64,000 nucleotides of DNA, from positions 1 to 64,000 of IMG/VR virus record IMGVR_UViG_3300017589_000080, one strand, 5' to 3'. Below the pieces are notes generated by a model, which was not told the DNA's origin, did not search any database, and saw only the letters and a program-made list of their open reading frames with translations. The DNA comes from a virus (taxonomy: Duplodnaviria; Caudoviricetes). Each line of letters opens with the position of its first letter. Within the stretch, counting starts at the first letter, position 1. This document shows positions 2,620 through 42,953 of this stretch, piece after piece. Both the position numbers and the translations under genes were made by a program.

Positions 2620-2937
2620 ATGACACTCCCATTAGAAGTTATCTTAATAGGGTTAGTAATTACAGTCTGTCAGATCTTACTGTTCTTACTTATGTACCTG
2701 TTGCTTAATAAGAAGATAACTCATAGTTCTGCGTCAAGATGTAATTTACAAGAGAAGCATGCTGAGATCTTAGATGCTGTAAGCAACTCAATTATTGATC
2801 TAAAGAAAGAGTTTGATGATGCTGACAAAAAATGTTCAAGTGACTTAAAAACTTTATCTGACCACTTGTTGGTCTTAGAATCAAATATGAACCTAGTTAA
2901 AACAAATGTTAACAATGACAATTTCCTTAATTTATAA
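2620..2937 (+). CDS. membrane-anchored coiled-coil protein
   Basis: N-terminal hydrophobic run VILIGLVITVCQILLFLLMYLLL followed by a heptad-like region. Confidence 0.7.
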   Translation: MTLPLEVILIGLVITVCQILLFLLMYLLLNKKITHSSASRCNLQEKHAEILDAVSNSIIDLKKEFDDADKKCSSDLKTLSDHLLVLESNMNLVKTNVNNDNFLNL

Positions 2938-2946
2938 TGATTAAAT

Positions 2947-2996
2947 AGTGCGAACCCTTTATTGATAGTAATATCTTTAGGTGGTTCGCACTTTTA
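2947..2996 (+). terminator. intrinsic terminator
   Basis: AGTGCGAACC pairs with GGTTCGCACT, followed by TTT; long loop; lies just after the stop at 2937. Confidence 0.7.
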
Positions 2997-3014
2997 CATA
3001 ACTGTAGAAGTCGT

Positions 3015-3049
3015 ACCTGAATTGTTAAAAGGAGGTCGTTATTTGACCT
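3015..3049 (+). promoter_or_regulatory. conserved 35-bp element B, copy 1
   Basis: ACCTGAATTGTTAAAAGGAGGTCGTTATTTGACCT; 31/35 identical to 34373-34407. Confidence 0.75.
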
Positions 3050-3066
3050 CAGAAGGGAAATAAAGC

Positions 3067-3204
3067 ATGCCTACTAACACTGGTAGTATTGGTCAGTTCA
3101 AAAGGTCTCCAACAACCTCTAAGCCTTCAAATAATACTAAAACACAACCAAAGAGCAATGGAGATAAAAGTTCTTTGAATAAAATGAAAAATAAGAAAAA
3201 GTAA
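3067..3204 (+). CDS. small basic protein (45 aa, MPTNTGSIGQFKRS...KMKNKKK)
   Basis: Below the ORF-track cutoff; purine-rich GAAGGGA upstream; open to TAA 3202-3204. Confidence 0.5.
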   Translation: MPTNTGSIGQFKRSPTTSKPSNNTKTQPKSNGDKSSLNKMKNKKK

Positions 3205-3259
3205 GATGTTCTATTATATCAACAGCGTTGTTACTCTTATAAGTAACAAGTATCTAAAA
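3205..3259 (+). promoter_or_regulatory. conserved intergenic element A, copy 1 (divergent)
   Basis: GATGTTCTATT...AGCGTTGTTACTCTTATAAGT..AAGTATCTAAAA; aligns with copies at 6688, 8463 and 11909. Confidence 0.65.
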
Positions 3260-3290
3260 ACAGTTTAACAAAATAGAAAGTGAGACTAAA

Positions 3291-3665
3291 ATGATAAAAG
3301 TAACAGAATCAACACAAGGGTCTGAAAATTATAACTTTAATATAGGCAAGTACTTTAAGCCATCTGATGATCTATCACAACAAGGTGAGGTGCTCCCTTT
3401 AATAGATGGTAAGTATAAACCATTAGTCTATGAAGAAGACTTTTTAATGGTAACCTTATATGGCGGATCAAGTGCTGGCATGGTAGAAGTAATAGTTGAC
3501 AGAATAAGTGAAGATGATACAGAGTATGGAACTGGTGGTAAATCTATTCCAGTAGCGAAAGCACTTAAGTTCTTTAATGAATTTATTGCAAGATATGAAG
3601 ACAATCCTGAAGATGATGAATTGATTGAAACACTAACTTTTACAGATTTCTTAAAGGAGATATAA
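3291..3665 (+). CDS. putative internal head protein, leader MIKVTE
   Basis: Shared leader; paralogous to the C-terminal half of 7760..8455. Confidence 0.75.
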   Translation: MIKVTESTQGSENYNFNIGKYFKPSDDLSQQGEVLPLIDGKYKPLVYEEDFLMVTLYGGSSAGMVEVIVDRISEDDTEYGTGGKSIPVAKALKFFNEFIARYEDNPEDDELIETLTFTDFLKEI

Positions 3666-3666
3666 A

Positions 3667-4014
3667 ATGATAAAAGTAACAGAAGGATTAACAGGAAAAT
3701 TAACAGATGCAACTGACCTTGATCGACAGTTGTGGGATGCAAATGATTTGCCTTCTGGCAGACCTGCTCAAATCTATGAAGGAAAACGATTTACAGTAAT
3801 TGTATCTACAGAAGAAGGTGTTGGAGACGACTCTGATGTAATTGTTGTATATGCCAGTGATGATCTTGGTGAAGAAGGTTATGCCTTTGGAACTAAAGAA
3901 TTTGGACTTCATGATGAAAAGAAAGCATTGTTGCTTGGATCTAAGATAGCTGAGATGGCTGATAATACAGAGATTGACCACAAACAAATGAATAAAATGT
4001 TTAGACTTTCATAA
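3667..4014 (+). CDS. putative internal head protein, leader MIKVTE
   Basis: Same 22-bp start junction as 3291 and 6758; acidic. Confidence 0.75.
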   Translation: MIKVTEGLTGKLTDATDLDRQLWDANDLPSGRPAQIYEGKRFTVIVSTEEGVGDDSDVIVVYASDDLGEEGYAFGTKEFGLHDEKKALLLGSKIAEMADNTEIDHKQMNKMFRLS

Positions 4015-4042
4015 AATAAATTAAAATTTAAGGAGAAACAAA

Positions 4043-4417
4043 ATGATAAAAAGAGTTAACGAAGCAATTGGTTCTGGAGAACAAGTAAAGTATCCTATAG
4101 ATATTGCACCCTTTCATTCGTTCACTAAGAGTGATCAAATGGGATACCCTGATGCAGGAGGTATTCTTGTAGGTGGGTCAGAATTACCTCCAATAGTCTA
4201 CTATGGCGATGACATGGAAATACTGATTTGTCAAGACTATGATGACAAGTTCAAATGTTGTATGGAAGTACAATTAGAAGAAGATATCTATAGCACAAAT
4301 AATAAAGGAATTCAATTTAAACTAGCAATGTCAATTGCTAAAAAGCTAATTAACATAACAGACTATGAAGACTTAATGGGAGCTCTAGAAAGTTCACGTT
4401 ATCTTGTATTGATGTAA
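4043..4417 (+). CDS. putative internal head protein, leader MIKRVNE
   Basis: SD AAGGAG; leader variant. Confidence 0.7.
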   Translation: MIKRVNEAIGSGEQVKYPIDIAPFHSFTKSDQMGYPDAGGILVGGSELPPIVYYGDDMEILICQDYDDKFKCCMEVQLEEDIYSTNNKGIQFKLAMSIAKKLINITDYEDLMGALESSRYLVLM

Positions 4418-4617
4418 TGGTTAAGGTAGTTGAAAGAAAGCAAGTAACTCATAAACCATTAAACCCTAAGCAGAAGAGACTAATTAGAAAGTTAATCTAT
4501 GGAGACTTTGATGAGATGGTTTATGAGTTACAAGGTACAAGCCTTGAATGGATAATAGATGAAGCCAATTATGACTATGATGAAATTATCTACACAATGC
4601 AAGACTTATTAAGATAA
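4417..4617 (+). CDS. putative internal head protein, leader MVKVVE
   Basis: TAATG coupling; leader variant; acidic C-terminal half. Confidence 0.65.
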   Translation: MVKVVERKQVTHKPLNPKQKRLIRKLIYGDFDEMVYELQGTSLEWIIDEANYDYDEIIYTMQDLLR

Positions 4618-4629
4618 AGGAGAATAAGA

Positions 4630-4929
4630 ATGTATAAAGATCTTATACAAGAAATAAAGGACACAACTTTCCTAAGTGATTATGACTACACTGTTAAAGG
4701 CAACAAACTAATCATAACTCTTGGAGAATATGTAACAACTGAACTCGTTATTGATTTAGAGAATCTTGAAGACAGCATCATAAACTCAAGTTTTGTATAT
4801 CCTGCATTGGAACTAAACAATAATGGAATTGGTGAGTACTTCGACATTGGAAGTGAAATAACCAACACAGCAGGACTAATAAAAGATTTATTCAGTGAGA
4901 TAAAATATATCATAGAAGAATCTGAGTAA
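4630..4929 (+). CDS. acidic hypothetical protein (no clear leader)
   Basis: SD AAGGAG; 99 aa, D/E-rich. Confidence 0.75.
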   Translation: MYKDLIQEIKDTTFLSDYDYTVKGNKLIITLGEYVTTELVIDLENLEDSIINSSFVYPALELNNNGIGEYFDIGSEITNTAGLIKDLFSEIKYIIEESE

Positions 4930-4942
4930 AGGAGAAACTAAA

Positions 4943-5371
4943 ATGATTAAAATTACAAACACAGGATTTGAAGGACGAGAAGAAGCTCTTGGTATGTTGA
5001 GAGAGTTTAATTATGAACTCCGAGACGTTATCGATGACATCTATGAAAAGCTTGTTGACAACGATGATAAATTCCCAAACATAAATGCTGCAATGCATGG
5101 TGAACATGGTGTTAGAAATGGCTGGGATGATGAAGTTAATGATGCTTGCAAAGATATTGCTGAACAGGTGTTAGAAGCAATCTACAATGGCGATCCAGAT
5201 TTTGAGTATGGTGGCTTTGGAGAGATTGTTGACCGTCTTATAAATGAAGATGAGTCTGGGATAGTCAGTGACTTAGAGTATTCTATGTCTGAAGCTGGAG
5301 AACAGGAACAAAAAGAATATGAAGATGAGATGGCTGACTTAAACCATTATTATAACAGTACGAGGTTATAA
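4943..5371 (+). CDS. very acidic protein, leader variant MIKITN
   Basis: SD AAGGAG; strongly D/E-rich. Confidence 0.75.
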   Translation: MIKITNTGFEGREEALGMLREFNYELRDVIDDIYEKLVDNDDKFPNINAAMHGEHGVRNGWDDEVNDACKDIAEQVLEAIYNGDPDFEYGGFGEIVDRLINEDESGIVSDLEYSMSEAGEQEQKEYEDEMADLNHYYNSTRL

Positions 5372-5372
5372 G

Positions 5373-5810
5373 ATGATAAAGATAACTGAAAGTAGTTTCT
5401 CTGTTGGGAGACTTATTCCATTAAGCTTTATTCTTGAACTAATGGAAACCAAGACAGATATCTACAAACACATAAAAAAGAATTACGAGTCAATGGTAGA
5501 AGCTAATACAGATCTATCAATGGCTATTAACTCATGTGTAAGAAGAGGTTCACCAGCCAGACCAGTCTTCAAAGATATGGTAACAGAAGATAAGAAGTTA
5601 TCTCCAGAAAAGAACCTTGTTATAGAAATTAATAATAAGTTCTATGTTATCGAAAAAGATATGTTTGTTGAGAAGTATTCAGCAAGAGATATCATTTCAG
5701 ACTCAGTTATTCCAGATGTTAAAAGATCACCATCTGATAAATACTTCCAGATAATAGACTTATTTAAAGAGAAATATCTGGACAGTCTGGAAAAGAGATA
5801 TACAAAATGA
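5373..5810 (+). CDS. putative internal head protein, leader MIKITE
   Basis: Leader; 145 aa. Confidence 0.7.
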   Translation: MIKITESSFSVGRLIPLSFILELMETKTDIYKHIKKNYESMVEANTDLSMAINSCVRRGSPARPVFKDMVTEDKKLSPEKNLVIEINNKFYVIEKDMFVEKYSARDIISDSVIPDVKRSPSDKYFQIIDLFKEKYLDSLEKRYTK

Positions 5811-6136
5811 TAAGAATATTTGAAGATCTGGAAGTTAATGCATCTGGAAACAATAAAGCTCTTAAAGTTTACAATAACATACTTAGAGTTATAAAAGATA
5901 AAGAAGCAGAGATTGAAGAAGTATCTAATGTTCATACAATTCCTCTTAGCAAAACGAAGGATGGTAAACTTAACATCACATTTGATTATGACTATGATTA
6001 TACTATTCAGATAAACATAGTTAGTGAAGATGAGATAGAGTTAATTTGTCCTAAGGATATGGAAGATGGAACTTTCGATTTAATCTCTGGCGAATATCCA
6101 GAGTATATAAAGAAGATAAAAACCATTACAACATAG
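5807..6136 (+). CDS. putative internal head protein, leader MIRIFE
   Basis: Leader; ATGA overlap. Confidence 0.7.
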   Translation: MIRIFEDLEVNASGNNKALKVYNNILRVIKDKEAEIEEVSNVHTIPLSKTKDGKLNITFDYDYDYTIQINIVSEDEIELICPKDMEDGTFDLISGEYPEYIKKIKTITT

Positions 6137-6150
6137 GAAGGAGAACATAA

Positions 6151-6687
6151 ATGATAAGAATACTTGAAGAACTTGAACTTCCAACAGCTGATCAAGAATT
6201 TACAAGCTCAGAGACAAGCATTAACTCATCAAGATTACCAGCAGTCTTTAAGAAGATACACTTTAATCCTGGAGATATGAATTTGGATTATGGTGGTGGG
6301 AAATTTGATAATGTTGCTGAGTATCTTGAAGAATTTGAAGTTGTTAACTTAGTTTATGACCCATTCAATAGACCATACAAACATAACAGCACTGTCCTTA
6401 AGATGGTAGATGAGAATGGTGGTGCAGACTCTGTAACATGCTCTAATGTTCTGAATGTCATTAAAGAAGAACAAGCAAGAGAAGTCGTTATTAAAAACTG
6501 TTACGACTTGTTAAAGTCTGGTCGCCGAGCATACTTTACAGTTTATGAAGGTAATAGATCTGGAGAAGGCAAGCCAAGCAACAAAGGTTTTCAGTTAAAT
6601 AAGAAGACTGAAGAATATCTCGACGAAATTTCTCAAGTTTTCAGCAGCATCTCTTTAAAAAATAAAGTAATAATTGCTGGAAAGTAA
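6151..6687 (+). CDS. class I SAM-dependent methyltransferase with leader MIRILE
   Basis: Motif I MNLDYGGGK, VYDP, ADSVTCSNVLNVI, then R..VIKNCYDLLK.G..AYFTV. Confidence 0.85.
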   Translation: MIRILEELELPTADQEFTSSETSINSSRLPAVFKKIHFNPGDMNLDYGGGKFDNVAEYLEEFEVVNLVYDPFNRPYKHNSTVLKMVDENGGADSVTCSNVLNVIKEEQAREVVIKNCYDLLKSGRRAYFTVYEGNRSGEGKPSNKGFQLNKKTEEYLDEISQVFSSISLKNKVIIAGK

Positions 6688-6744
6688 GATGTTTCTATTT
6701 GAAGCTAACGTTGTTAATTATGTAAGTCGAAAATAATACTTAAA
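6688..6744 (+). promoter_or_regulatory. conserved intergenic element A, copy 2
   Basis: GATGTTTCTATTTGAAGCTAACGTTGTTAATTATGTAAGTCGAAAATAATACTTAAA. Confidence 0.8.
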
Positions 6745-6757
6745 AGGAGAAATTAAA

Positions 6758-7039
6758 ATGATAAAAGTAACAGAAAAATGGATGGATAATGATACTAAAC
6801 TCTCATCAAGAGAAACTGCTCTGGTGACAAGAGTACATGGTAAAGTAACCATTGGCAAGATATTAAGCACTAAAAATTACACAGACGAGTACTATTGGAC
6901 AAATGTGTTTGATACTTATAGAGAGTTTAATCCATGGATTACTATTGAAGGTGCTGAATTAATGGCAATAGAGATGGTAAAACGGATTAACAAAGATCTA
7001 GAAAACCATTACAATGATCCAATGACTTCGATGTCTTAA
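6758..7039 (+). CDS. putative internal head protein, leader MIKVTE
   Basis: SD AAGGAG; identical 22-bp junction. Confidence 0.75.
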   Translation: MIKVTEKWMDNDTKLSSRETALVTRVHGKVTIGKILSTKNYTDEYYWTNVFDTYREFNPWITIEGAELMAIEMVKRINKDLENHYNDPMTSMS

Positions 7040-7049
7040 GGAGAAAGAA

Positions 7050-7376
7050 ATGATAGATGTAAGAGAAATAAGTTATTCAGACTTTAAAGGTCGGATAGAT
7101 CTTGATAAAGCATTCAATGAGTGCAACCGAATTATCAGGATACATGACAAGCATACAGAAGGAGTAGAATTTAGCTCAGAATGGGATGATGATTTTCCAT
7201 CTTTTGTTATCTGTGCTGTTGGCGGAAGATATGATGGTGTAAGATTAGTACAAGTTACTAACAACTCTTCAAGAGGACTTGATATAAGAGAACTGGTTTT
7301 TGCAGACCATAAAGACAGAAGACTTATTGGTATTGAAAAATTAATGGTAAAAGCTCTCTTAGGACTGGAGAAATAA
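7050..7376 (+). CDS. putative internal head protein, leader variant MIDVRE
   Basis: SD AAGGAG; leader variant. Confidence 0.65.
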   Translation: MIDVREISYSDFKGRIDLDKAFNECNRIIRIHDKHTEGVEFSSEWDDDFPSFVICAVGGRYDGVRLVQVTNNSSRGLDIRELVFADHKDRRLIGIEKLMVKALLGLEK

Positions 7377-7378
7377 TA

Positions 7379-7735
7379 ATGATAAGAATTAATGAATCTG
7401 ACAGTAAGGTGTTCACTGATCCTAAGATGGATAAATTACGGAAGATTATAATTACTAACGGAGAATTATCTGACAAAGGTAATTACACCTTAGATGGTGC
7501 ATTAATGGCATGGTATTCTCCATCAAAAGGAGAAATTGTGGTGATGGATCCAATGTGGGGATACCCAAGATATGTTTATGATGGATCTAAGTTTTACAAG
7601 AAAGCATCTGGTGGTGGTACTGCAACACTTCAGAGAGCAACCTTAATAAAGAACGTGATACAACAGATACGTTATGGCAGGTATGCTAAACTTGATGAAT
7701 TTGATGAAGAAGGTAATGTCATCCAACAATCATAA
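7379..7735 (+). CDS. putative internal head protein, leader MIRINE
   Basis: Leader; 118 aa. Confidence 0.7.
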   Translation: MIRINESDSKVFTDPKMDKLRKIIITNGELSDKGNYTLDGALMAWYSPSKGEIVVMDPMWGYPRYVYDGSKFYKKASGGGTATLQRATLIKNVIQQIRYGRYAKLDEFDEEGNVIQQS

Positions 7736-7759
7736 AAATTTGAATGGAGAAATAAAGAA

Positions 7760-8455
7760 ATGAAAATTATTGATAAAAGTAAGGTTCTTAAAGAAAACTC
7801 TGGTAGCTATGATTTAGTCTCTCGTTTTGAAGAGATAATGTCTGAGATTGCTGATCTTGTTGATGAGGCATATAATATAACATATGCTAGTCAAGATAGT
7901 ATGAATGCAGAAAGATCTAAATCATACTGGTATGCCACAATGCTTGGAAATATTGGTGGCGACTATTCTAATGGATACTCTGGCAGTATGTTTAATATGA
8001 ATGATGTCTTACGAGACATGGAAAATGGTGGAGAAGAATTCGACGATGAGGACTATGATCTAAGACCAGGTTTTGAAGAGTCTAAACAAAGAAGCGTTAA
8101 AATTACTGAGAAAAGTAAAGTTGCTAAAGAAGAATTCAATCCTGAAGAATTCATTGGTTCTGGTATGAGACAACAATTAATAGATGAAGATGGGTTTGTA
8201 GATGATGAAGGTACATTAATTTATGAAAATGACTTTTTACTATTAACAATAACGCCATATAAAAATGGTCTTGTTAATATGGAATTTGACCGTCTTAGTG
8301 AGAATGATGATGTTTATAGCACTGAGAATGGAAAACCTTGGAAATTAATTGATGCATTAAAATTTTGTCATAATTTTGTAAGAAGATATGAAAACGATGA
8401 TTATCCTGAAGAACTTATAGAAGTTCTTGAGTACAACCATATTAAAGCATTATAA
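7760..8455 (+). CDS. two-unit acidic protein with duplicated leader; C-terminal unit paralogous to 3291..3665
   Basis: MKIIDKSKVLKE at the N-terminus and VKITEKSKVAKE internally; LIYENDFL...DRLSEND...ALKF...RYE...ELIE.L shared with 3291. Confidence 0.8.
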   Translation: MKIIDKSKVLKENSGSYDLVSRFEEIMSEIADLVDEAYNITYASQDSMNAERSKSYWYATMLGNIGGDYSNGYSGSMFNMNDVLRDMENGGEEFDDEDYDLRPGFEESKQRSVKITEKSKVAKEEFNPEEFIGSGMRQQLIDEDGFVDDEGTLIYENDFLLLTITPYKNGLVNMEFDRLSENDDVYSTENGKPWKLIDALKFCHNFVRRYENDDYPEELIEVLEYNHIKAL

Positions 8456-8462
8456 TTATTTA

Positions 8463-8515
8463 GCTGTTTTATTATTCTTTTAACGTTGTTAACTGTGTAA
8501 GTCGAAATACTTAAA
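8463..8515 (+). promoter_or_regulatory. conserved intergenic element A, copy 3
   Basis: GCTGTTTTATTATTCTTTTAACGTTGTTAACTGTGTAAGTCGAAATACTTAAA. Confidence 0.8.
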
Positions 8516-8533
8516 ATAATGGAGGTTTATACA

Positions 8534-8683
8534 GTGAACGTTAAAGAAGAAACGAAAGCTTTTAATTGTGAAGGGTGTTTTTATCTTGATCACTTTGAAG
8601 AAATGAAAGAAGACATCTGCTCAAAATGTGTCAAGGAACATGAAGAAAAATCTGCTAAGGATAATGGTGATGATAATGAGTAA
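8534..8683 (+). CDS. small CxxC/CxxC zinc-binding protein (49 aa)
   Basis: SD GGAGG, GTG start; CEGC...CSKC; overlaps ATG 8676; missed by the ORF track. Confidence 0.6.
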   Translation: MNVKEETKAFNCEGCFYLDHFEEMKEDICSKCVKEHEEKSAKDNGDDNE

Positions 8684-9749
8684 GTTTGAACTAAGTATCT
8701 CTAGCAATTATGTTCCTGACTGGACAGTAGTGGATGCAGTAAGAGAGATTTATCAAAATGCTTTAGATGAAGAAGTTCAAAATGATCGGAGTAAATTGGT
8801 GTTTGAGTATGATAAGTTTAATAAAATCATTACAATAACAAACACCAATTCAACTCTTGATATTAGATCTCTTCTTCTTGGTAAAACTGATAAAAGACAG
8901 AACGATGAATTGATTGGTAATCATGGTGAAGGATATAAAATTGCTTCATTGGTTCTTCTAAGACTTGGAAAGACAGTTACAGTCTTCAATGGTGACAAAG
9001 AAGTTTGGAAACCAAGACTTGTAAAGACAAGAAGATTCAAAGGAGAACAGGTTTTAACGTTCTTTACAGAGAGTACCGCTATCAGAGATAACGATGTTAA
9101 GTTCATAATCGGTGGTATCACTGAGTTTGATTATCAAGATATTGTTAAAAGCAATCTCAATCTTCAGGACATACCAGAATCTGATATGAAACATACAGTT
9201 AACGGCACAGTTCTTACAGATGATAAGTACAAAGGTAATCTTTATATCTCAGGCTTATTTGTCTGTCATAATAAAATGTTATCTGGTGGGTATAATTACA
9301 AACCAGGACATATTAAACTTGATCGAGATAGAAGAGTTATCACAGACTTCGATGTCAAGTATGAGACATCAAGAATTATTGCTTCAAGCGATGATAAGGA
9401 TTTTATTGTCTCAATGCTATGTGAAAAAGAATCTGTCTATGTTGGATATCACATGCAGCCAGATATGATACAAGAGGTCTCACAGCATTACTTTGATCTA
9501 TACAATGGATCAGAAACAATTGTAACATCTGACAGCAGTCTACATACAAAATGTTTGAAAGATGGTGTTAAATCTGTCTTGGTGGCTGAAGGTGTATCAG
9601 AGATTCTTAATAAGTCTGACCTCAAATTTAAAGAGTATGTTGAATCCAAGTCAACAAGAGTGATGATGGAAGAGCTAATAAGTAAAATCGAAGATAAGCT
9701 AACTGAAGATGAACTATTGGAAGCTAATCTTATCTTAAGAAGACTATAA
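8676..9749 (+). CDS. GHKL (HSP90-like/HATPase) ATPase
   Basis: N box AVREIYQNALD and G boxes LLLGKTDK...IGNHGEGYKIA; the probable start MSKFELSIS at 8676 overlaps the preceding small ORF. Confidence 0.85.
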   Translation: MSKFELSISSNYVPDWTVVDAVREIYQNALDEEVQNDRSKLVFEYDKFNKIITITNTNSTLDIRSLLLGKTDKRQNDELIGNHGEGYKIASLVLLRLGKTVTVFNGDKEVWKPRLVKTRRFKGEQVLTFFTESTAIRDNDVKFIIGGITEFDYQDIVKSNLNLQDIPESDMKHTVNGTVLTDDKYKGNLYISGLFVCHNKMLSGGYNYKPGHIKLDRDRRVITDFDVKYETSRIIASSDDKDFIVSMLCEKESVYVGYHMQPDMIQEVSQHYFDLYNGSETIVTSDSSLHTKCLKDGVKSVLVAEGVSEILNKSDLKFKEYVESKSTRVMMEELISKIEDKLTEDELLEANLILRRL

Positions 9750-9765
9750 ACAAGAAAGGGAATGT

Positions 9766-11907
9766 ATGAACGAGTTATCAAAAGACATATTATCGAGACT
9801 ATCTCCTGAAGAACATGCATTAACATTAAAGATTCTTAATGAAATGTCTAGTAATGGTAATTCAGATACTCTTAATGCTTTGTACAAAGAGGATTACGAT
9901 GAAATTCCTGTAGACATTGATACTTTTATCTCTGATGAGAAGTATCTTGGTAAGTCTACAAAAGGTGGGACAAGAATCTGGCCATATTGGAGACAAGCTC
10001 AGAGAGAAATCTTTGAACCTGATAAAGATGGTCAGATGAAATTCCAGCAAGTTATCTTAACAGGATCTATCGGGATTGGTAAGAGTCAGAATGCAGTTAT
10101 TGGATTAGCATATGTTCTATATAAGTTGTTATGTTTGAAAGATCCTCAAGAATACTATGAATTAGTTTCTGGATCTGAAATCGTAATAGCTTTCTTTAAT
10201 GCCACCTTGGATTTATCAAGTGGTGTTGGTTTCACATCATTACAGAATATCTTACAGGAATCACCATGGTTTATGGAGAGAGGTAAGATTATTGGAACAA
10301 AGAATAAAGAGTATGTTCCTAATAAGAATATAAGATTTAAAGTTGGTTCACAAGCCAGTCATGGTATTGGACAACATATCTTTGCAGGGATGCTCGATGA
10401 AGTCAACTTCGTTAAAGGATCGAATGTACATGTTGAACAGTCAAAGATAATGGATATCTACTCAGGAGTTCTTGAAAGAATGAAATCTCGATTTATGAGA
10501 AAAGGTAGATTGCCTGGAGTTCTGTTCTTAGTATCTTCAAAGAAATCTGAGCATGACTTTCTTGAAACTTATGTACAGAAACAAAAGCATAGAGAAGATG
10601 TTTATATAGTAGACAAGCCATTATGGGATGTTAAGCCTTCAAGAACATATAGTGGTAAATGGTTCGATTTAGCAGTTGGTAATGTTTATCAACCATCTAA
10701 AATTGTAAATGTTGGAGAAGACTTAGATGCACTGAAGACACAAGGATATGAAATCATACAGGTTCCAATAGAGCATTATGAAGAGTTTGTACTGGATATA
10801 GATAAGGCTTTAATGAATATCGCTGGTATCTCTATCTCACATTACACTCGATTTATCTCTTATGAGAGTATCAGTGGTTGTTATTGTCCTGACAAGAACC
10901 CATTTACTTCAGCAATTCTTGTCATCGGGTTCAAAGATACAATGTCTATTAAGGACTTTTATAAACCGAAACTTGTATCTGAAGAAATCTACACTAAACC
11001 AATATTTATCCACATTGATACATCACTAACAGGTGATATAACTGGTATTGGTGCTGTTGCTGTTATGGGATATAAATATGTAAATCATTATGACATCAAT
11101 GAAGGAACAGTTGTCCCAACGAAAGAAATACTGTATAAACATCTTTTCTCTGTTGGTATAAAAGCACCAGCAGGATCAGAAATATCGTTCCAGAAAACAA
11201 GAGAGTTCATCTATTATCTTAAGTATGTTTTAGAATACAATATTATTGCAACATCTCTAGATGGTTATCAATCTGCAGATAGTAAGCAACAGTTAATTGT
11301 CGCTGGATTTCAAGATTCAACAATTGTATCTCTTGATAGAAAGCCTGACGGATATCTAGTTCTTAAGTCAGCAATGAATGAGAAAAGAATTGCAATGTTA
11401 GATATCCCTGAGCTAGAACTTGAAGCAGTTAATCTTGAAAGAGATAATATAACTGGTAAAGTCGATCATAAGATAGATGGTTCTAAGGATTTAATGGATG
11501 GTCTTGCAGGAGCAATTTATAATGCATCACTGCACGAAGCAAAACTCAACTTATACCAATCAGAATTTGCAGAGTCTTTCATTGAATATAATGATGACAG
11601 TGAAGTCTACGATGTAAGAGAGAATTTATTACACAATCTTACAATAAGTCCAAGAAGACAAGAAGTTGATCTTGTTCTGGATGATGATAAAAGTGAAGAT
11701 GAGGATAAAACTCTGAAAGAGATATTGCAGGAACACATAAAAGATATAAAGAGTGAATCTTTGTTGGAAAATACTAAGAGTCTTACACCAGATGAAATTG
11801 AAAGAATCAAATTTAAGAATTCTAAGAATATGTTTAATGCATTGAAAATAGACAGTAGTACTTTAGAAGATCTTTTTGATGATCCTGACGATTTAATAAT
11901 GATGTAA
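9766..11907 (+). CDS. terL: terminase large subunit
   Basis: Walker A LTGSIGIGKS, Walker B GMLDEVN, LVSSK motif III, RNase H-like nuclease IHIDTSLTGD...SLDGYQS...DHKIDGSKDLMD; acidic C-terminal tail. Confidence 0.93.
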   Translation: MNELSKDILSRLSPEEHALTLKILNEMSSNGNSDTLNALYKEDYDEIPVDIDTFISDEKYLGKSTKGGTRIWPYWRQAQREIFEPDKDGQMKFQQVILTGSIGIGKSQNAVIGLAYVLYKLLCLKDPQEYYELVSGSEIVIAFFNATLDLSSGVGFTSLQNILQESPWFMERGKIIGTKNKEYVPNKNIRFKVGSQASHGIGQHIFAGMLDEVNFVKGSNVHVEQSKIMDIYSGVLERMKSRFMRKGRLPGVLFLVSSKKSEHDFLETYVQKQKHREDVYIVDKPLWDVKPSRTYSGKWFDLAVGNVYQPSKIVNVGEDLDALKTQGYEIIQVPIEHYEEFVLDIDKALMNIAGISISHYTRFISYESISGCYCPDKNPFTSAILVIGFKDTMSIKDFYKPKLVSEEIYTKPIFIHIDTSLTGDITGIGAVAVMGYKYVNHYDINEGTVVPTKEILYKHLFSVGIKAPAGSEISFQKTREFIYYLKYVLEYNIIATSLDGYQSADSKQQLIVAGFQDSTIVSLDRKPDGYLVLKSAMNEKRIAMLDIPELELEAVNLERDNITGKVDHKIDGSKDLMDGLAGAIYNASLHEAKLNLYQSEFAESFIEYNDDSEVYDVRENLLHNLTISPRRQEVDLVLDDDKSEDEDKTLKEILQEHIKDIKSESLLENTKSLTPDEIERIKFKNSKNMFNALKIDSSTLEDLFDDPDDLIMM

Positions 11908-11908
11908 C

Positions 11909-11962
11909 GATGTTTTTATTTAGTTTCAACGTTGTTAATTATGTAAGTAGGAAATACTTAAA
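11909..11962 (+). promoter_or_regulatory. conserved intergenic element A, copy 4
   Basis: GATGTTTTTATTTAGTTTCAACGTTGTTAATTATGTAAGTAGGAAATACTTAAA. Confidence 0.8.
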
Positions 11963-11976
11963 TAATGGAGGACGAA

Positions 11977-12366
11977 ATGAAACAACAAACATACACTAAG
12001 AAGTATAATGAGAAGACAAAATTATATGTTGTAAGCTGTGATGGAGTATTCGCTGGAAATGCCAGAACGTTGGAAGAAGCTGACGAGGTTATCAAAGATG
12101 ATGTCTTAGAAAAGCTTGGAGAAGTCAGAAGAGATTATCCTGAATACAATGTTGACTTTGAGAACATTCTAGCATACTTATACCAGAACACATCAAGTGG
12201 AATCATGTACTACTGTCGTGATGGGAGTCCTTTTGTGGAAGCCAACTTATTAAAGATGACTACTGAAGAAGCTTTAGCTCTGGCTCATAAATTTAATAAA
12301 TTTGATATTAATGATCCTAAGAATTCTGATCGTAATGTTTGGAAGGTTGGATATATTAAAAAGTAA
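11977..12366 (+). CDS. hypothetical protein
   Basis: SD GGAGG at 11967 favours ATG 11977. Confidence 0.75.
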   Translation: MKQQTYTKKYNEKTKLYVVSCDGVFAGNARTLEEADEVIKDDVLEKLGEVRRDYPEYNVDFENILAYLYQNTSSGIMYYCRDGSPFVEANLLKMTTEEALALAHKFNKFDINDPKNSDRNVWKVGYIKK

Positions 12367-37781: not shown

Positions 37782-38078
37782 ATGTCTATTTTAACTATTA
37801 AGGATCTAGAAGAGAGAAGTAAATCTTTACCAAGCTATGTTGATGATATTCTGTTAGCTATTGAAAGTGAGACAGATGCTGTGAAAGAATACGATTCAAT
37901 TTTAGAGATTCCTAATCTTCCGAGTAAGGTACAAGAACTCATAAGAGAGATTAGAGATGATGAGAAAGATCACATGACACTGTTGTCTGCATTACTTTAT
38001 CAGATAACCTCAACAGGACAAATGAACAATGAAGAGGAAGTCAGTGTCAGTGATGAAGATCTGGAGCTTGATTTATGA
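37782..38078 (+). CDS. ferritin-like (two-helix) protein
   Basis: AIESETDAVKEY (ExxA..Y) and IREIRDDEKDH (DExxH). Confidence 0.75.
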   Translation: MSILTIKDLEERSKSLPSYVDDILLAIESETDAVKEYDSILEIPNLPSKVQELIREIRDDEKDHMTLLSALLYQITSTGQMNNEEEVSVSDEDLELDL

Positions 38079-38743
38079 TAAGGGTTTATGAAGGTGTAAA
38101 TGATTATTACTTATATCATTCTACTCCAGCAATAAATGCTATCAGAATAATAACTGATAATAAGTTAATGGCAATTAGAGCCGATGATGAAAAGGCTATT
38201 TCTTTCAGTAGGAATAAGAGAGTTATCTATGGTGACATTGCATTTACTATTGACAGAAGAAAGCTATCACATAACTACAAAATTATTCCTGTCTCAAAAG
38301 GACTTGAACAAGGATACAGATCAGATGGAGATGCAGAGGTTTCCGATGAAGAACGTGTGCTAAGAGATGTCAAAAACTTCTTAAGCTATGTTCTCTCAAT
38401 TGATTTCTGTGCTGCTAAGACTCCTGAGAGAATTATCAGGAAAGCATTATTCACCTCTTCTATTGAAGAGATAACAACTATTACAGATAACTCTAATAAC
38501 AATAAGAGATGTAACAATTTCTATAATCTGTATCTTGTTGTAAATGCTAAAGGAATCCCAGTTGGTAAGAAATTATCAAGCTTATTTAAAGTCCTAGAGG
38601 ATAAGCTAAATGACACTGGCAGTGATGAAGAATGGGTAACTGCTAATACAAGTTATGGTAAGTATAATTCCCCATACGTTCCAGCAAAAAGGAACAAAGG
38701 AAAACCAATACCTAACACTTATGGTGGTGGGGAAGATATTTAA
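38075..38743 (+). CDS. ADP-ribosyltransferase-like protein with leader MIRVYE
   Basis: YLYHST (beta-1), ISFSRN (S-x-S), F.ID..KL...Y.I.P, DEERV (acidic catalytic-loop position). Confidence 0.6.
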   Translation: MIRVYEGVNDYYLYHSTPAINAIRIITDNKLMAIRADDEKAISFSRNKRVIYGDIAFTIDRRKLSHNYKIIPVSKGLEQGYRSDGDAEVSDEERVLRDVKNFLSYVLSIDFCAAKTPERIIRKALFTSSIEEITTITDNSNNNKRCNNFYNLYLVVNAKGIPVGKKLSSLFKVLEDKLNDTGSDEEWVTANTSYGKYNSPYVPAKRNKGKPIPNTYGGGEDI

Positions 38744-38760
38744 TAAGAAAGGTTGATGAG

Positions 38761-39672
38761 ATGATTAGACCATTAAAAGAAAGTGTAGCTGTCAGATACA
38801 GTAAAGTGTATCAGCAAGATGGCTTTAAGTTTAGATACAATTATAAACTTGCTGAGTTAGAAGTGCTTGACGGAACTGAGGTAATTGATTCAATGGGTTT
38901 ATCTTCTGGAGACTGGGATGAAAGTCCTCGATACTGGATAGATCAATACATGAGTAACTTTGAAAGTGAGTTCGACCTTGCTGACTTGGAAGATGAATTT
39001 GGTTACTTGAATGAATCAGAAGAGTTGGAGCCTTTAATCCTCGATGAAGATGACTTTGATGTTGTTGATGGAGATGGCAACCGTCCTCCTGTAAAACGAA
39101 GAGGAATGACAGGTGGGTCAAGAAAAGAAATAGATAACACTTATTATTTCAGAAGTCCACTGATGGTGACAACCACTTCAGACTATGATGACTATGAAGT
39201 TGGAGATGGGTCAGAACTTGTAAACAGAGGAATTGAGAATCAGCTTCTTAATGCTTTATATGATGAGTTTAAAGAACTTGACTTAGCAGAATACATTGAT
39301 GAGAAATACAACAGTGTAATCTATGGTAAGATCAAATCTATCAAAGTTACTGCAGAGTTGACAAGTGATCATCGATCAATGATTGGTGTTGCAGTTGTTG
39401 AAGCTAATGAAGAACTTGATGATGAAACTATCATGGCATTAAAAGAATATATTTCTGGACAGTACTCTGATGGTTGGGGTGAGGGATTCGAACAACGACC
39501 TATTTCAGAATACAATGACACTGTTGAATTTGAGAATGAAGAATACGATGAAGAGACAGGAGAAACTGAGTACAATACAGAATATGAAACAGGTCACTTT
39601 GAAACCTGTGTATCTTTCTGGTATGGTCATGACCAGTTACCAAGATCACCATGGTCATTAAAACTAAGTTAA
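38761..39672 (+). CDS. very acidic multidomain protein with leader MIRPLKE
   Basis: D/E-rich; internal YLNE site; GQYSDGWGEGFEQR motif. Confidence 0.75.
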   Translation: MIRPLKESVAVRYSKVYQQDGFKFRYNYKLAELEVLDGTEVIDSMGLSSGDWDESPRYWIDQYMSNFESEFDLADLEDEFGYLNESEELEPLILDEDDFDVVDGDGNRPPVKRRGMTGGSRKEIDNTYYFRSPLMVTTTSDYDDYEVGDGSELVNRGIENQLLNALYDEFKELDLAEYIDEKYNSVIYGKIKSIKVTAELTSDHRSMIGVAVVEANEELDDETIMALKEYISGQYSDGWGEGFEQRPISEYNDTVEFENEEYDEETGETEYNTEYETGHFETCVSFWYGHDQLPRSPWSLKLS

Positions 39673-39685
39673 GAAAGGGATAACA

Positions 39686-39919
39686 ATGATAAGATTACTT
39701 AAAGAGGAGAGAGCTCCTAAGAGAAAGATAATTAAGAAGTTCAGTTACAAAGGCTTCAAGATTAAACAATACTCTGAAGACACTGATCCAGAGAGTGCTA
39801 AATATGAGTTTGAAGTCTTCACCAAAGATAACCCATATGATGTTGAATGGGAATGTGATAGTCTGAAAGAAGTTCATGAGTTCATTGATTCATGGTCTGC
39901 TGATGATGGTGAATGGTAA
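39686..39919 (+). CDS. putative internal head protein, leader MIRLLKE
   Basis: Leader; directly upstream of the protease. Confidence 0.7.
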   Translation: MIRLLKEERAPKRKIIKKFSYKGFKIKQYSEDTDPESAKYEFEVFTKDNPYDVEWECDSLKEVHEFIDSWSADDGEW

Positions 39920-39965: not shown

Positions 39966-41516
39966 ATGGCAAAGAAAGATAAGATGATTCTTACAGAACG
40001 ACTTGGACCTTTAACTTATGTTAAAGAATCAGGTGAAAGAAATGGTAAAAATTATATTGGTCGACTTGTTGGAGAAGGTTCTAACTTCTTAAAACCTACT
40101 CGTAATGGTAGAAAGTATAATTTGCAGTTATGGGAGAATGTTGAATCTAGTCCTGACTTTATTGAATCAATGGAGACTCTTACATGTTTCGGAGAAGCCG
40201 ATCATCCTGAGACTCGTGCTGACACTTCTATAAAAGAAATTGCAGTAGTATTAACTAAGTTTGAGATAAGAAGACAAGAAGGAATTGTTGCTGTTGAATT
40301 TGATATTCTGGATACTCCTAATGGTCGACTTGTTAAAAGCATTTTAGACTATGGCAGTAAACTTGGTGTTTCAAGCAGAGGTCTTGGCGATGAAATATTT
40401 GTTGATGGTGAAACTTTAATTGACCCAGAAACTTATGAATTTTATGGCTTTGATGTTGTTGTAACACCAGCGGTTAAAAGTGCTCGACCTTCCTTAGTAG
40501 AATCAAAAACTAAGACAGGTTTAGTGGAATCTTTTAATCGAGAAATTAAAGAAGCTTCCTCTTCGAATGAGCTTGAATCAATTCGAAGACTTGCAGAAAC
40601 ATTAAAAATACCAGAGTTAGATTCTATTAAAGAATCTTTGAATAATAAACTTTCTAACTTACCTGCAGGAGATGATATCTCAGAAGGCTTAAAGAAAGAT
40701 CTGGAAGAAGTTATTTTGGAAAATGATCAGTTGCTTAAAGAAAACGAGACTTTAAAAAGCAAGCTATCAGCTAATGATATTAGAGTTAGAAAGCTAGAAG
40801 GCAAGTTAAAAGTAACAATGGTCAAGGGAACAAAGATTCAAAAGAACTTACAAGAATCCCAACTAACTATTGTAAGTCTAGAAGATGAGTTAGTTATTGG
40901 TTCAGAACAGATGAATGAACTCTCAGGAACCAGTGAAAGAAAGATTAAGAAGCTCGAAACTCGTTTAGCATCACTAAGCAGAATTGTCAAGGAAACCAAA
41001 GATGGTCATGAAAAGATTATCAATGAACTTAATAGCAACTATGAAGATGATGTTAAAGAATACCTTACAGAAATTGACAGTCTCAGAATTCGAGTGGACA
41101 GATTAAAAGAATCAAAAGATAATCTTAAATCACAGGTGAAAGTTCTTAATGACTCTCTTGTTAAAGAAACATCTAATAAGAAGTTAATTGAGAAGAAGAT
41201 ACATGAAAAGCATTCGTCCGAAGAGGAAGCCATAAAGAAGCTTCTTGTTACAGAGAATACAATAAAGAGTAAGTACTTAAAAGTTAAATGTGCCCAGTCT
41301 GGTATTAAGCTGGACACTGCAACGGGACTTCTTCCTAAAGAGTACACTGTTGAAGACATTGATAAAATTGTTGGAGATCTAGCTGATAGAAAGTTGAGAC
41401 TTGGGAAACTTCCTGTTGAGATTCGTCCAAGAACAGCAATCTTAAGTGAAGGATTAAGTAACATTACTCCAGAAGAAAAACAAACGATGTCGTTCTTAAC
41501 AGGCAAGATCTTATAA
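39966..41516 (+). CDS. prohead protease (T4 gp21-like) fused to coiled-coil scaffold-like domain
   Basis: NGRKY, FGEADHP (His), ILDTPNG, GVSSRGLG (Ser), FDVVVTPA (Asp); ~330 aa heptad-rich tail. Confidence 0.92.
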   Translation: MAKKDKMILTERLGPLTYVKESGERNGKNYIGRLVGEGSNFLKPTRNGRKYNLQLWENVESSPDFIESMETLTCFGEADHPETRADTSIKEIAVVLTKFEIRRQEGIVAVEFDILDTPNGRLVKSILDYGSKLGVSSRGLGDEIFVDGETLIDPETYEFYGFDVVVTPAVKSARPSLVESKTKTGLVESFNREIKEASSSNELESIRRLAETLKIPELDSIKESLNNKLSNLPAGDDISEGLKKDLEEVILENDQLLKENETLKSKLSANDIRVRKLEGKLKVTMVKGTKIQKNLQESQLTIVSLEDELVIGSEQMNELSGTSERKIKKLETRLASLSRIVKETKDGHEKIINELNSNYEDDVKEYLTEIDSLRIRVDRLKESKDNLKSQVKVLNDSLVKETSNKKLIEKKIHEKHSSEEEAIKKLLVTENTIKSKYLKVKCAQSGIKLDTATGLLPKEYTVEDIDKIVGDLADRKLRLGKLPVEIRPRTAILSEGLSNITPEEKQTMSFLTGKIL

Positions 41517-41567: not shown

Positions 41568-42953
41568 ATGGCAAATACAATTAACCAAAGAACTAAACAA
41601 TTAATTGGTCGTTATGCTAAAAGAATTAGCATGGTTGAAAAAGCACAAGGTTCTCCACTGACATTAGAAAAACGAGCTGTTCTTGCTAACTCCTTACATA
41701 ATGTTTCTCAGCTGGTACAGATGAAAGAAGCAACGAACCCTGGATCCATTGGTCAGTACAAACGATATGCACTTGACATCGTAACTGCCACTGTTCCTAA
41801 CTTGATTGCATTCGATGTAATGTCTGTACAATCTATGGACAATAGAATTGGTATGATCAACTACATGGACTACCAATACTCCAAGGATAAAGGAACCACT
41901 AAAGCTGGTGATGTATTTGCAAGCTCTATCAACATGGGACCTTCCAACCATGAGTATTCCAGTAACCGAGTAACCGATCAAGAAATTGGTTCTGCTGGAC
42001 AAACTGAATATGGTACAACTGCTTTCCCAATCCAATTGAACTGGCATCCAGTAACTCTTGGAACCTTTACTGTTGAAGCTAACGATGGTGCAATTATCGG
42101 TTCTGCCGATCCTGCTACTGGTGTAATTACTGGTATTGGTGTTTCTGGTAAAGTAACCGTTGATGGTCGACTTAACTTGACTTTCACTGCTGGTACTACT
42201 AATCCTCCAGTTATCAACTATGTATTTAACAATGAAGACATCCGTTCTGATGGACCTTTAAACTCTGCTTTCAGTAATGTTCCTGAAGTTGAATTAAAAC
42301 TCAACAGCTTACCAATTACTGCTACTGCACGTACAATGAGAACTTACTGGGCATTCGATGCACAATTCGAGCTTCAGAAAGAATATGGTCAGGACATCGA
42401 AACTCTGTTGGCAACTCAGTCAACTGGTGAGTTAGCACATGAAATCGATACTGAATTAACTCTTGACCTGTTACACTTCGCCAATGCTGGTACTCCTCAA
42501 GTTTGGTCAAAAGCCATGACTCCTGGGATTGCATTAGTCGATCATTATGACAGCTTCAATGCTAAAGTAGTTGAAGGTGCCAATGTTATCTTTGGTGCTA
42601 CTCGTAAAGTAAAAGCTAATTTCATGGTCTGCGGACTTGAAGTTGCTGGTATCATCGAGATCATGAGAAACTTTACTGCTTCTGGTGTAACTGCTGTTGG
42701 TCCACATTTCCTTGGTACTCTTGGAACCTTAAAAGTGTATGTCAATCCTGATTACCCATCACGTGAATATGTACTTGGTTACAAAGGTGCAAACATGTTT
42801 GATGCTGGTGCTTTCTACTGTCCTTATATGCCAATCAGTTCTACTGATTTAATCATGGATGCAAACTTCCGAGGTCAACGTGGCTGGGCAACAATGTATG
42901 GTAAGAAATTCCTTAACAGCAAAATGTACTTACGAGGTTCCATTACTGACTAA
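41568..42953 (+). CDS. major capsid protein (T4 gp23-like)
   Basis: PNLIAFDVMSVQSM, ITATARTMR..W......L...YG.D.E, EID.E, YKG....DAG.FYCPY.P. Confidence 0.95.
   Translation: MANTINQRTKQLIGRYAKRISMVEKAQGSPLTLEKRAVLANSLHNVSQLVQMKEATNPGSIGQYKRYALDIVTATVPNLIAFDVMSVQSMDNRIGMINYMDYQYSKDKGTTKAGDVFASSINMGPSNHEYSSNRVTDQEIGSAGQTEYGTTAFPIQLNWHPVTLGTFTVEANDGAIIGSADPATGVITGIGVSGKVTVDGRLNLTFTAGTTNPPVINYVFNNEDIRSDGPLNSAFSNVPEVELKLNSLPITATARTMRTYWAFDAQFELQKEYGQDIETLLATQSTGELAHEIDTELTLDLLHFANAGTPQVWSKAMTPGIALVDHYDSFNAKVVEGANVIFGATRKVKANFMVCGLEVAGIIEIMRNFTASGVTAVGPHFLGTLGTLKVYVNPDYPSREYVLGYKGANMFDAGAFYCPYMPISSTDLIMDANFRGQRGWATMYGKKFLNSKMYLRGSITD

Follow-up and report, generated by a model that had tools for sequence, protein, structure and literature searches.

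The question raised by this locus is whether a small phage methyltransferase can travel in the virion head as cargo, and what it would modify if it does. Known proteins that are injected with phage DNA are few, i.e. the T4 internal proteins, Alt, the P1 Dar proteins and the N4 RNA polymerase, and they act before phage gene expression, the stage at which host defences are most dangerous to the genome. The window analysed here, a stretch of 64,000 nucleotides from an IMG/VR virus record of 75,011 bp (estimated 62% complete, 35% G+C), contains at 6151-6687 on the + strand an ORF of 178 aa, for which an earlier note had proposed a virion-delivered, stand-alone SAM methyltransferase carrying a capsid leader.

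The ORF is a real gene, with a strong ribosome-binding site and many homologues. Its ATG is the first start codon past the upstream stop, and a Shine-Dalgarno element read from the sequence, GGAAGGAGAA (6136-6145, + strand), is located 5 nt before it, the first base of the element being the final base of the TAG stop of the upstream gene (6134-6136). Scanning of 2800-10000 for promoters and terminators yielded sites no commoner than in shuffles, and megablast of 3000-12000 against cultured phages returned no match. The encoded protein is composed of MIRILE, an 8-residue acidic linker and a class I SAM-methyltransferase domain, all on the + strand. MIRILE (residues 1-6, 6151-6168) is a predicted capsid-targeting propeptide, with a predicted prohead-protease cut after Glu6, between I-L-E and the next E. 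The linker ELELPTAD (residues 7-14, 6169-6192), which joins the leader to the domain, differs in length and sequence among homologues. The domain itself (residues 15-178, 6193-6684) includes a family-specific N-terminal segment, QEFTS..TSINS..LP..F, followed by motif I, NLDYGGG (residues 44-50, 6280-6300), as the SAM-binding glycine loop past strand 1. YDP (residues 69-71, 6355-6363) carries the acidic residue ending strand 2, the modelled strand being 65-69, and strand 4 with the next loop is ADSVTCSNVLNVI (residues 92-104, 6424-6462), in which S98, N99, V100, L101, N102 and V103 are invariant. Every motif that the earlier note had quoted, including MIRILE, is found at these positions.

The minimal class I methyltransferase fold claimed in that note is borne out by an AlphaFold2 model of the 178-aa protein built with 61 homologues as input (pLDDT 90.3, pTM 0.86), by Foldseek and by VIA-align. 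Foldseek against PDB yielded 325 matches at E<=1e-3, all SAM methyltransferases among the matches listed, which include UbiG, RPA2492, METTL6 and Trm9 with E about 1e-5 and TM 0.5-0.6. The best VIA-align match is Trm9 (Z 13.4, rmsd 3.0, 139 aligned residues), and 258 chains have Z of at least 8. As judged from the model, the protein has the class I SAM-methyltransferase fold. The rows of structural neighbours are tied, so that they confirm the fold and name no substrate. The top structural matches Trm9 and METTL6, together with MnmM-like profile matches, were considered as a guide to the substrate and rejected, as these rows are within 1 Z unit of small-molecule enzymes. Hen1 is absent among the best 50 structural matches listed, where the rows are tied and generic.

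At the level of sequence profiles the window protein has weak matches to Methyltransf_12 (E 0.024) and TIGR04096 (E 0.018), and no match to Methyltransf_23 (PF13489) at E<=1. Homologues at 55-63% identity reach 28-32 bits with PF13489, just above the gathering threshold of 27 bits. The family profile found nothing significant among PDB sequences, the best E being 0.72. The family is large: 398 homologues of similar length were found at E<=1e-5, and an exhaustive search at E<=1e-3 gave 2,054 cluster representatives, of which 467 have E below 1e-30. These about 2,000 cluster representatives are almost wholly viral.

About 35 columns are invariant in the family alignment of 61 homologues. They comprise D46, G48, G49 and G50 of the glycine loop and D70, the acidic residue ending strand 2 being the usual SAM ribose ligand; the polar residues N73, R74, H78, N79, S98, N99, E106, R110, Y132 and Q148 in the loops that follow strands 2, 4 and 5; and S19, T22, S23, I24, N25, P30 and F33 of the N-terminal segment. 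This pattern seems to be that of an active enzyme with a fixed substrate under strong selection, and the gene product is probably a small, active SAM-dependent methyltransferase made of leader, linker and enzyme. A catalytically dead fold with a structural or binding role inside the head, e.g. a sponge for SAM or a related molecule, would agree with the six main strands of the model, one below the canonical seven, in a minimal fold, and with the scores of the window protein below the Pfam thresholds. Since motif I, the strand-2 aspartate and many pocket residues are invariant in all 61 homologues, however, we hold this explanation to be very improbable.

The leader recurs within the phage. The DNA pattern for M-I-(K/R)-(I/V)-x-E is present in 8 copies on the + strand of the 75-kb record, all of them at gene starts, with seven in an array at 3291-8455 and one at 38075. 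No copy is found on the - strand of the record, and the reversed control pattern gave none as well. The leader is not a chance feature. The array (3291-8455, + strand) is a run of 13 small genes that includes the methyltransferase gene, and the majority start with the leader or a variant of it: MIKVTE (three genes), MIKITE, MIRIFE, MIRILE, MIDVRE, MIRINE, MIKRVNE, MVKVVE and MKIIDKSKVLKE. Three further leader-bearing genes, starting MIRVYE, MIRPLKE and MIRLLKE, are located at 38075-39919 on the + strand, just upstream of the protease gene. The leader of the window protein is outside the fold, as residues 1-4 of the model, within MIRILE, have pLDDT <50 and the matches of fused homologues to the window protein start only at residues 5-13.

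A shared gene start could also have a meaning at the level of nucleic acid. The protein might be an ordinary cytoplasmic methyltransferase made after entry, in which case the start would serve translation initiation, a translational regulator or a recombination handle for shuffling accessory genes, and not protein targeting. Consistent with this, three genes have exactly the 18-nt start ATGATAAAAGTAACAGAA in common, suggesting conservation at the DNA level. The other copies, however, hold the peptide pattern with different codons, which argues against such a role, and a function as recombination handle would be compatible with targeting.

The majority of the leader-bearing products of the array are strongly acidic, with net charges of -9 to -28 and pI values of 4.0-4.5; DNA-mimic anti-restriction proteins are one possibility for them. 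The 231-aa product of 7760-8455, which starts MKIIDKSKVLKE, has an internal near-repeat of its start, VKITEKSKVAKEE, at about residue 100, and its C-terminal half is a paralogue of the product of 3291-3665 (41% identity, E 3e-14). By its sequence it resembles two cargo units joined in one polypeptide, with a putative cleavage site inside. BLASTP of the other window ORFs against the fused homologues of the methyltransferase, in which the cargo neighbours could have appeared as fusion partners elsewhere, gave no matches.

A candidate enzyme for processing of the leader is encoded at 39966-41516 (+ strand), where a predicted prohead protease (residues ~1-215) is followed by a coiled-coil scaffold-like tail. 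It matches Peptidase_S77 (PF03420, the T4 gp21 family) with 28.2 bits, a narrow margin over the cut-off of 27, and phrog_207 with an E of 2.7e-28. PF03420 is found in the majority of 120 protease-domain homologues among the matches listed. Phmmer of the protease against PDB gave no gp21 match because the protease is too distant, and the assignment rests on Pfam and PHROGs. The major capsid protein, of the T4 gp23 family (41568-42953, + strand; Pfam Gp23, PF07068, 1.8e-48), has a predicted propeptide ending Q-M-K-E54, with the cut before A. In the alignment with the capsid proteins of HSE3 (a Bacillus phage) and LIS04 (a Listeria phage), E54 with (M/L)-x before it is invariant. Among cultured phages the closest capsid proteins, with 37-43% identity, come from HSE3 and SP-15 of Bacillus, LIS04 of Listeria and a Streptococcus phage. 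On the coding strand of HSE3 and LIS04, no copy of the leader DNA pattern was found.

MIRILE is of the hydrophobic-x-Glu type, and the capsid propeptide ends likewise. The leader thus agrees with the kind of site cut by S77 proteases, one of which the phage encodes, as well as with the end of the capsid propeptide, and this speaks against a purely cytoplasmic enzyme. The term capsid leader, as used in the earlier note, needs qualification: the leader is real, but the major capsid protein does not carry it, having instead a propeptide of about 54 residues that ends M-K-E. The term should therefore mean a capsid-targeting leader. The head module also encodes a 98-aa rubrerythrin/ferritin-like protein at 37782-38078 (Pfam Rubrerythrin, E 0.003, below threshold), and a 373-aa gene at 8628-9749, just upstream of the large terminase, matches phrog_6077 at 5e-71.

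Homologues in other phages allow the leader to be examined apart from its own genome. A hydrophobic-x-E motif is present in the first 10 residues of 43 of the 71 stand-alone homologues, compared with 18% at internal control positions, and the first Glu occupies position 6 or 7 in 33 of the 71. The leader varies together with the starts of neighbouring genes in the same phage. One locus (L026) has two adjacent genes with identical MKLNINE, and other sets of related starts are MIKVIE, MIKIID, MISITDE and again MIKVIE in L006, MIIKE and MKLRINE in L025, MRIFLE, MVTMLE and MKIFIE adjoining the terminase in L003, and MIRILE, MITRLEE and MIRFLEE in L084, which has a T4-type portal. Homologues in unrelated phages keep a basic-hydrophobic...-x-Glu start, quite different in DNA and in peptide and matching that of their own neighbours, which is a further point against a start conserved for translation in the cytoplasm. 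By a strict, ungapped measure (at least 4 of 6 residues), the leader is shared with neighbours at 6 of 43 distinct loci, implying that certain lineages, but not all, show such sharing.

Leaderless stand-alone homologues start exactly at a conserved Q-E/K-Y/F-T/S-S, equivalent to Q15 of the window protein, so that the first 14 residues of the latter are an add-on. There are many such homologues, and the enzyme is evidently able to work without packaging; their existence is in favor of a cytoplasmic role.

The only cultured phages with a homologue are the KVP40-like vibriophages. KVP40.0066 is homologous to the window protein with an hhalign probability of 97.8% and a BLASTP value of 3e-14, and the window protein matches phrog_14016, annotated as of unknown function, at 4e-10. 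Both are true homologues, in which the conserved domain starts right after a short leader, although the likeness is confined to residues ~15-120 and the C-terminal halves are dissimilar. In KVP40 the gene is placed two genes downstream of gp24, with gp55 and KVP40.0065 between. Its product starts MKQFCNFLAE, which equals the T4 targeting sequence MKTYQEFIAE at M1, K2, F7, A9 and E10 and differs from it conservatively at positions 4 and 8, and the homology to the window protein begins at residue 11. Gene 0066 is the sole match in KVP40 to a strict T4-like targeting-sequence pattern. The T4-like targeting sequence on this homologue counts against an enzyme that stays in the cytoplasm. KVP40.0065 (L001 2514-3959, 481 aa) starts MLGNFDSFLSE and is a looser candidate for a T4-like targeting sequence near gp24 and gp55. 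Our literature search found no virion proteomics for KVP40.0066 or another homologue, and no packaged small methyltransferase.

In other phages the domain is fused to modules of virions or of delivered proteins. P0129 has it with a DarB-like anti-restriction module (phrog_10089, 9.6e-182) and LPD38, P0140 has an XkdF-type prohead protease at the N-terminal end, and P0346 has a Dit-like tail domain at its start. An encapsulated-ferritin-like domain (PF22277, 37 bits) is ahead of the methyltransferase domain in P0281, and the same EncFtn-like and methyltransferase pair occurs in many other proteins of ~400 aa according to precomputed Pfam labels. In IMG/VR loci the domain is also found within ORFs of 2,000-4,000 residues. 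All-against-all clustering of the fusion partners revealed modules in common, few of which are named by Pfam or PHROGs. Homologues of the domain are thus found inside polyvalent proteins, a class described by Iyer et al. 2017 (PMC5512222), together with DarB-like, LPD38, XkdF-protease and other modules. The window protein differs from these in being single-domain, by profile search and model, and not made of the two to fifteen domains of polyvalent proteins. The main text of that paper makes no mention of the minimal methyltransferase domain (PMC5512222), and our search of the literature for a paper on the domain found none. Repeated fusion to virion modules is the last of the points against an ordinary cytoplasmic methyltransferase, which we consider unlikely on balance.

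We assign a probability of roughly 55% to the reading that the protein is a leader-tagged head cargo enzyme, which would be packaged, trimmed after Glu6 and ejected with the DNA. MIRILE, of a type common to about a dozen unrelated neighbour genes, would dock the protein on the protease-scaffold core during prohead formation. The gp21-type (S77) prohead protease would then cut after Glu6 at the hydrophobic-x-Glu site, a specificity that is extrapolated from T4, and the mature enzyme of ~172 residues would be retained in the DNA-filled head. It may be ejected with the genome and methylate a target with host SAM before phage gene expression. The leader reading is well supported, if indirectly. 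Virion delivery is likewise supported indirectly, as it fits the gp21-type protease, the common leader, the homologues that lack the leader or are fused, and the sequence resembling T4 targeting on the KVP40 homologue. Points against this reading are the brevity of the leader and its lack of likeness to the T4 internal-protein sequence, its absence from HSE3 and LIS04, clear sharing with neighbours at no more than 6 of 43 loci, the many leaderless homologues, the S77 score close to its cut-off and the window protein's failure to reach the Methyltransf_23 threshold. The analysis itself shows the fold, the intact cofactor motifs, the families of the protease and capsid protein, the statistics and comparative behaviour of the leader, and the fusion partners; we infer the docking, cleavage, head retention, ejection, enzymatic activity and target.

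Close parallels are found in T4. Alt is a head-packaged ADP-ribosyltransferase that is ejected with the DNA and modifies host components. T4 gp21 removes exactly six N-terminal residues from Alt at I-T-E (ITE-6), and mature Alt is 68.2 kDa (PMC5694885). The two systems are alike in the T4-type head and in a six-residue propeptide, ending I-T-E in Alt and following M-I-(K/R)-(I/V)-x-E here, where MIKITE is one of the starts. They differ in that Alt carries out ADP-ribosylation rather than methyl transfer, is far larger than 178 aa and has no sequence similarity to the window protein, the packaging of which is a prediction.

[quoted passage not shown] As with the MIRILE type, a short N-terminal sequence is thus common to unrelated proteins of one phage. 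The leader is 10 residues long in T4 and 6 here, however, and the cargo is basic in T4 but mostly acidic here, where it includes an enzyme fold. MIRILE and the T4 targeting sequence MKTYQEFIAE are unrelated; a resemblance is seen only in the KVP40 homologue with its MKQFCNFLAE (PMC8442874). The earlier note had called a virion-delivered methylase unusual, which is overstated, as P1 DarB is a known head-packaged methyltransferase that is delivered in the virion (PMC5512222). DarB is an adenine methyltransferase of the EcoKI/TaqI type that has NPP(Y/F) and is fused to a helicase, whereas the window enzyme belongs to a different minimal family with a single domain and a leader.

The chemical nature of the target can be approached from what the protein contains and what it does not contain. 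Protection of incoming DNA was one of the roles suggested before. The catalytic motif of DNA amino-methyltransferases sits in strand 4 and the following loop. In the window protein, neither (D/N/S)PP(Y/F/W) nor a Pro-Cys motif is present after strand 4, and S-N-V-L-N-V is located there instead. YDPFN, which holds the only D-P of the protein, was considered as a disguised DPPY-type catalytic motif and rejected, since its position is after strand 2, at the SAM ribose site, and not after strand 4. No target-recognition domain is seen in sequence or model, as the 164-residue domain has no extra lobe. The mature protein is acidic, with a pI of 5.2 and a net charge of about -5. The missing motif, the lack of room for a recognition domain and the acidity together make ordinary methylation of DNA bases unlikely as the activity, and DNA protection by such methylation is disfavored. 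As far as the sequence allows us to judge, an ordinary DNA base is an unlikely target.

The earlier note had also pointed to a resemblance to TIGR04096, the DNA phosphorothioation-associated putative methyltransferase family. The likeness is real, though distant and limited to the SAM-binding half: the window protein scores 13.8 bits, with residues 34-121 aligned on profile positions 23-99 of a model of 478 positions. Since the curated cut-off is 150 bits, the protein is not a member, and the C-terminal ~380 positions of the family are missing from the 178-aa phage protein. TIGR04096 is the nearest named NCBIfam family and the commonest weak NCBIfam match, being found in 30 of the 61 homologues with a best E of 2e-5, although all of them stay well short of the cut-off. 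A TIGR04096 search of the record and 14 control genomes found no true member.

These findings bear on the proposal that the protein is packaged but acts in cis on phage DNA, at ejection or packaging, against restriction. Such a role has a precedent in the methyltransferase DarB, which is packaged in the head and protects DNA in cis (PMC5512222), and one homologous domain is inside the DarB-like P0129. The tie of TIGR04096 to DNA phosphorothioation and the ParB-N and Methyltransf_23 fusions among the ESM Atlas structural neighbours also point in this direction. The absence of (D/N/S)PP(Y/F/W) and Pro-Cys motifs, a domain of 164 residues without room for target recognition, and the net charge of the mature protein all oppose it. 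The structural neighbours listed are RNA and small-molecule methyltransferases, not DNA enzymes, and in P0129 the domain is added to a DarB-type module, suggesting a different job. Protection of the phage's own DNA seems quite unlikely to us.

For the cargo enzyme that we prefer, the pocket is nearly invariant among phages whose hosts differ widely, and this suggests a universal substrate. In a rough split, we lean weakly towards RNA or a nucleotide-like molecule as the target, at somewhat short of even odds. A small metabolite appears considerably less probable, and a protein target or an unusual DNA chemistry would each be improbable. Because the chemistry is presumably other than ordinary DNA protection, identification of the substrate could reveal a new methylation route to disarm or reprogram hosts.

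The principle of head cargo is already known from T4 Alt and the internal proteins, P1 DarB and the polyvalent proteins. The new elements are a methyltransferase family as predicted cargo, a leader of so few residues in a T4-like phage of the Gram-positive type, and the large extent of the family, which is met repeatedly, either behind a leader as apparent cargo or built into polyvalent proteins. A wider proposal would be that the family acts widely in counter-defence as an enzyme delivered with the virion, is loaded through leaders particular to each lineage or as part of polyvalent proteins, and methylates a universal target other than a DNA base (tRNA, other RNA or a nucleotide-derived immune signal) before phage gene expression; we put this forward only tentatively and regard it as doubtful in its full extent. 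The six-residue leader could provide a short tag to bring foreign proteins into the T4-like heads of phages of Gram-positive hosts, and gene 0066 of Vibrio phage KVP40 provides a cultivable test case.

Several minor observations concern the neighborhoods of the homologues. On a 77.9-kb JGI contig (L006), a Pfam Tad6 gene at 6549-6812 directly follows the methyltransferase homologue and starts MIKIID, the local leader type; its product may be an anti-defence sponge loaded as cargo. At L012 7099-12545, four consecutive genes adjoining a methyltransferase homologue that starts MNNLIAQELVRSRMKR share a M..I..IV..LRESR start, which suggests lineage-specific leaders of another kind. Many fused homologues (L013-L029 and P0024-P0151) start M-K/R-I-x-R/K...(A/S)(A/S)-S, e.g. 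MRIIKSQRNIAAS and MKITRRSKIAAS, and this start may represent a third leader class that is cut by a different protease type. On a closely related contig (L084), a Thg1-family tRNA-His guanylyltransferase-like gene is located at 1587-2354, 2 kb upstream of the MIRILE-bearing homologue.
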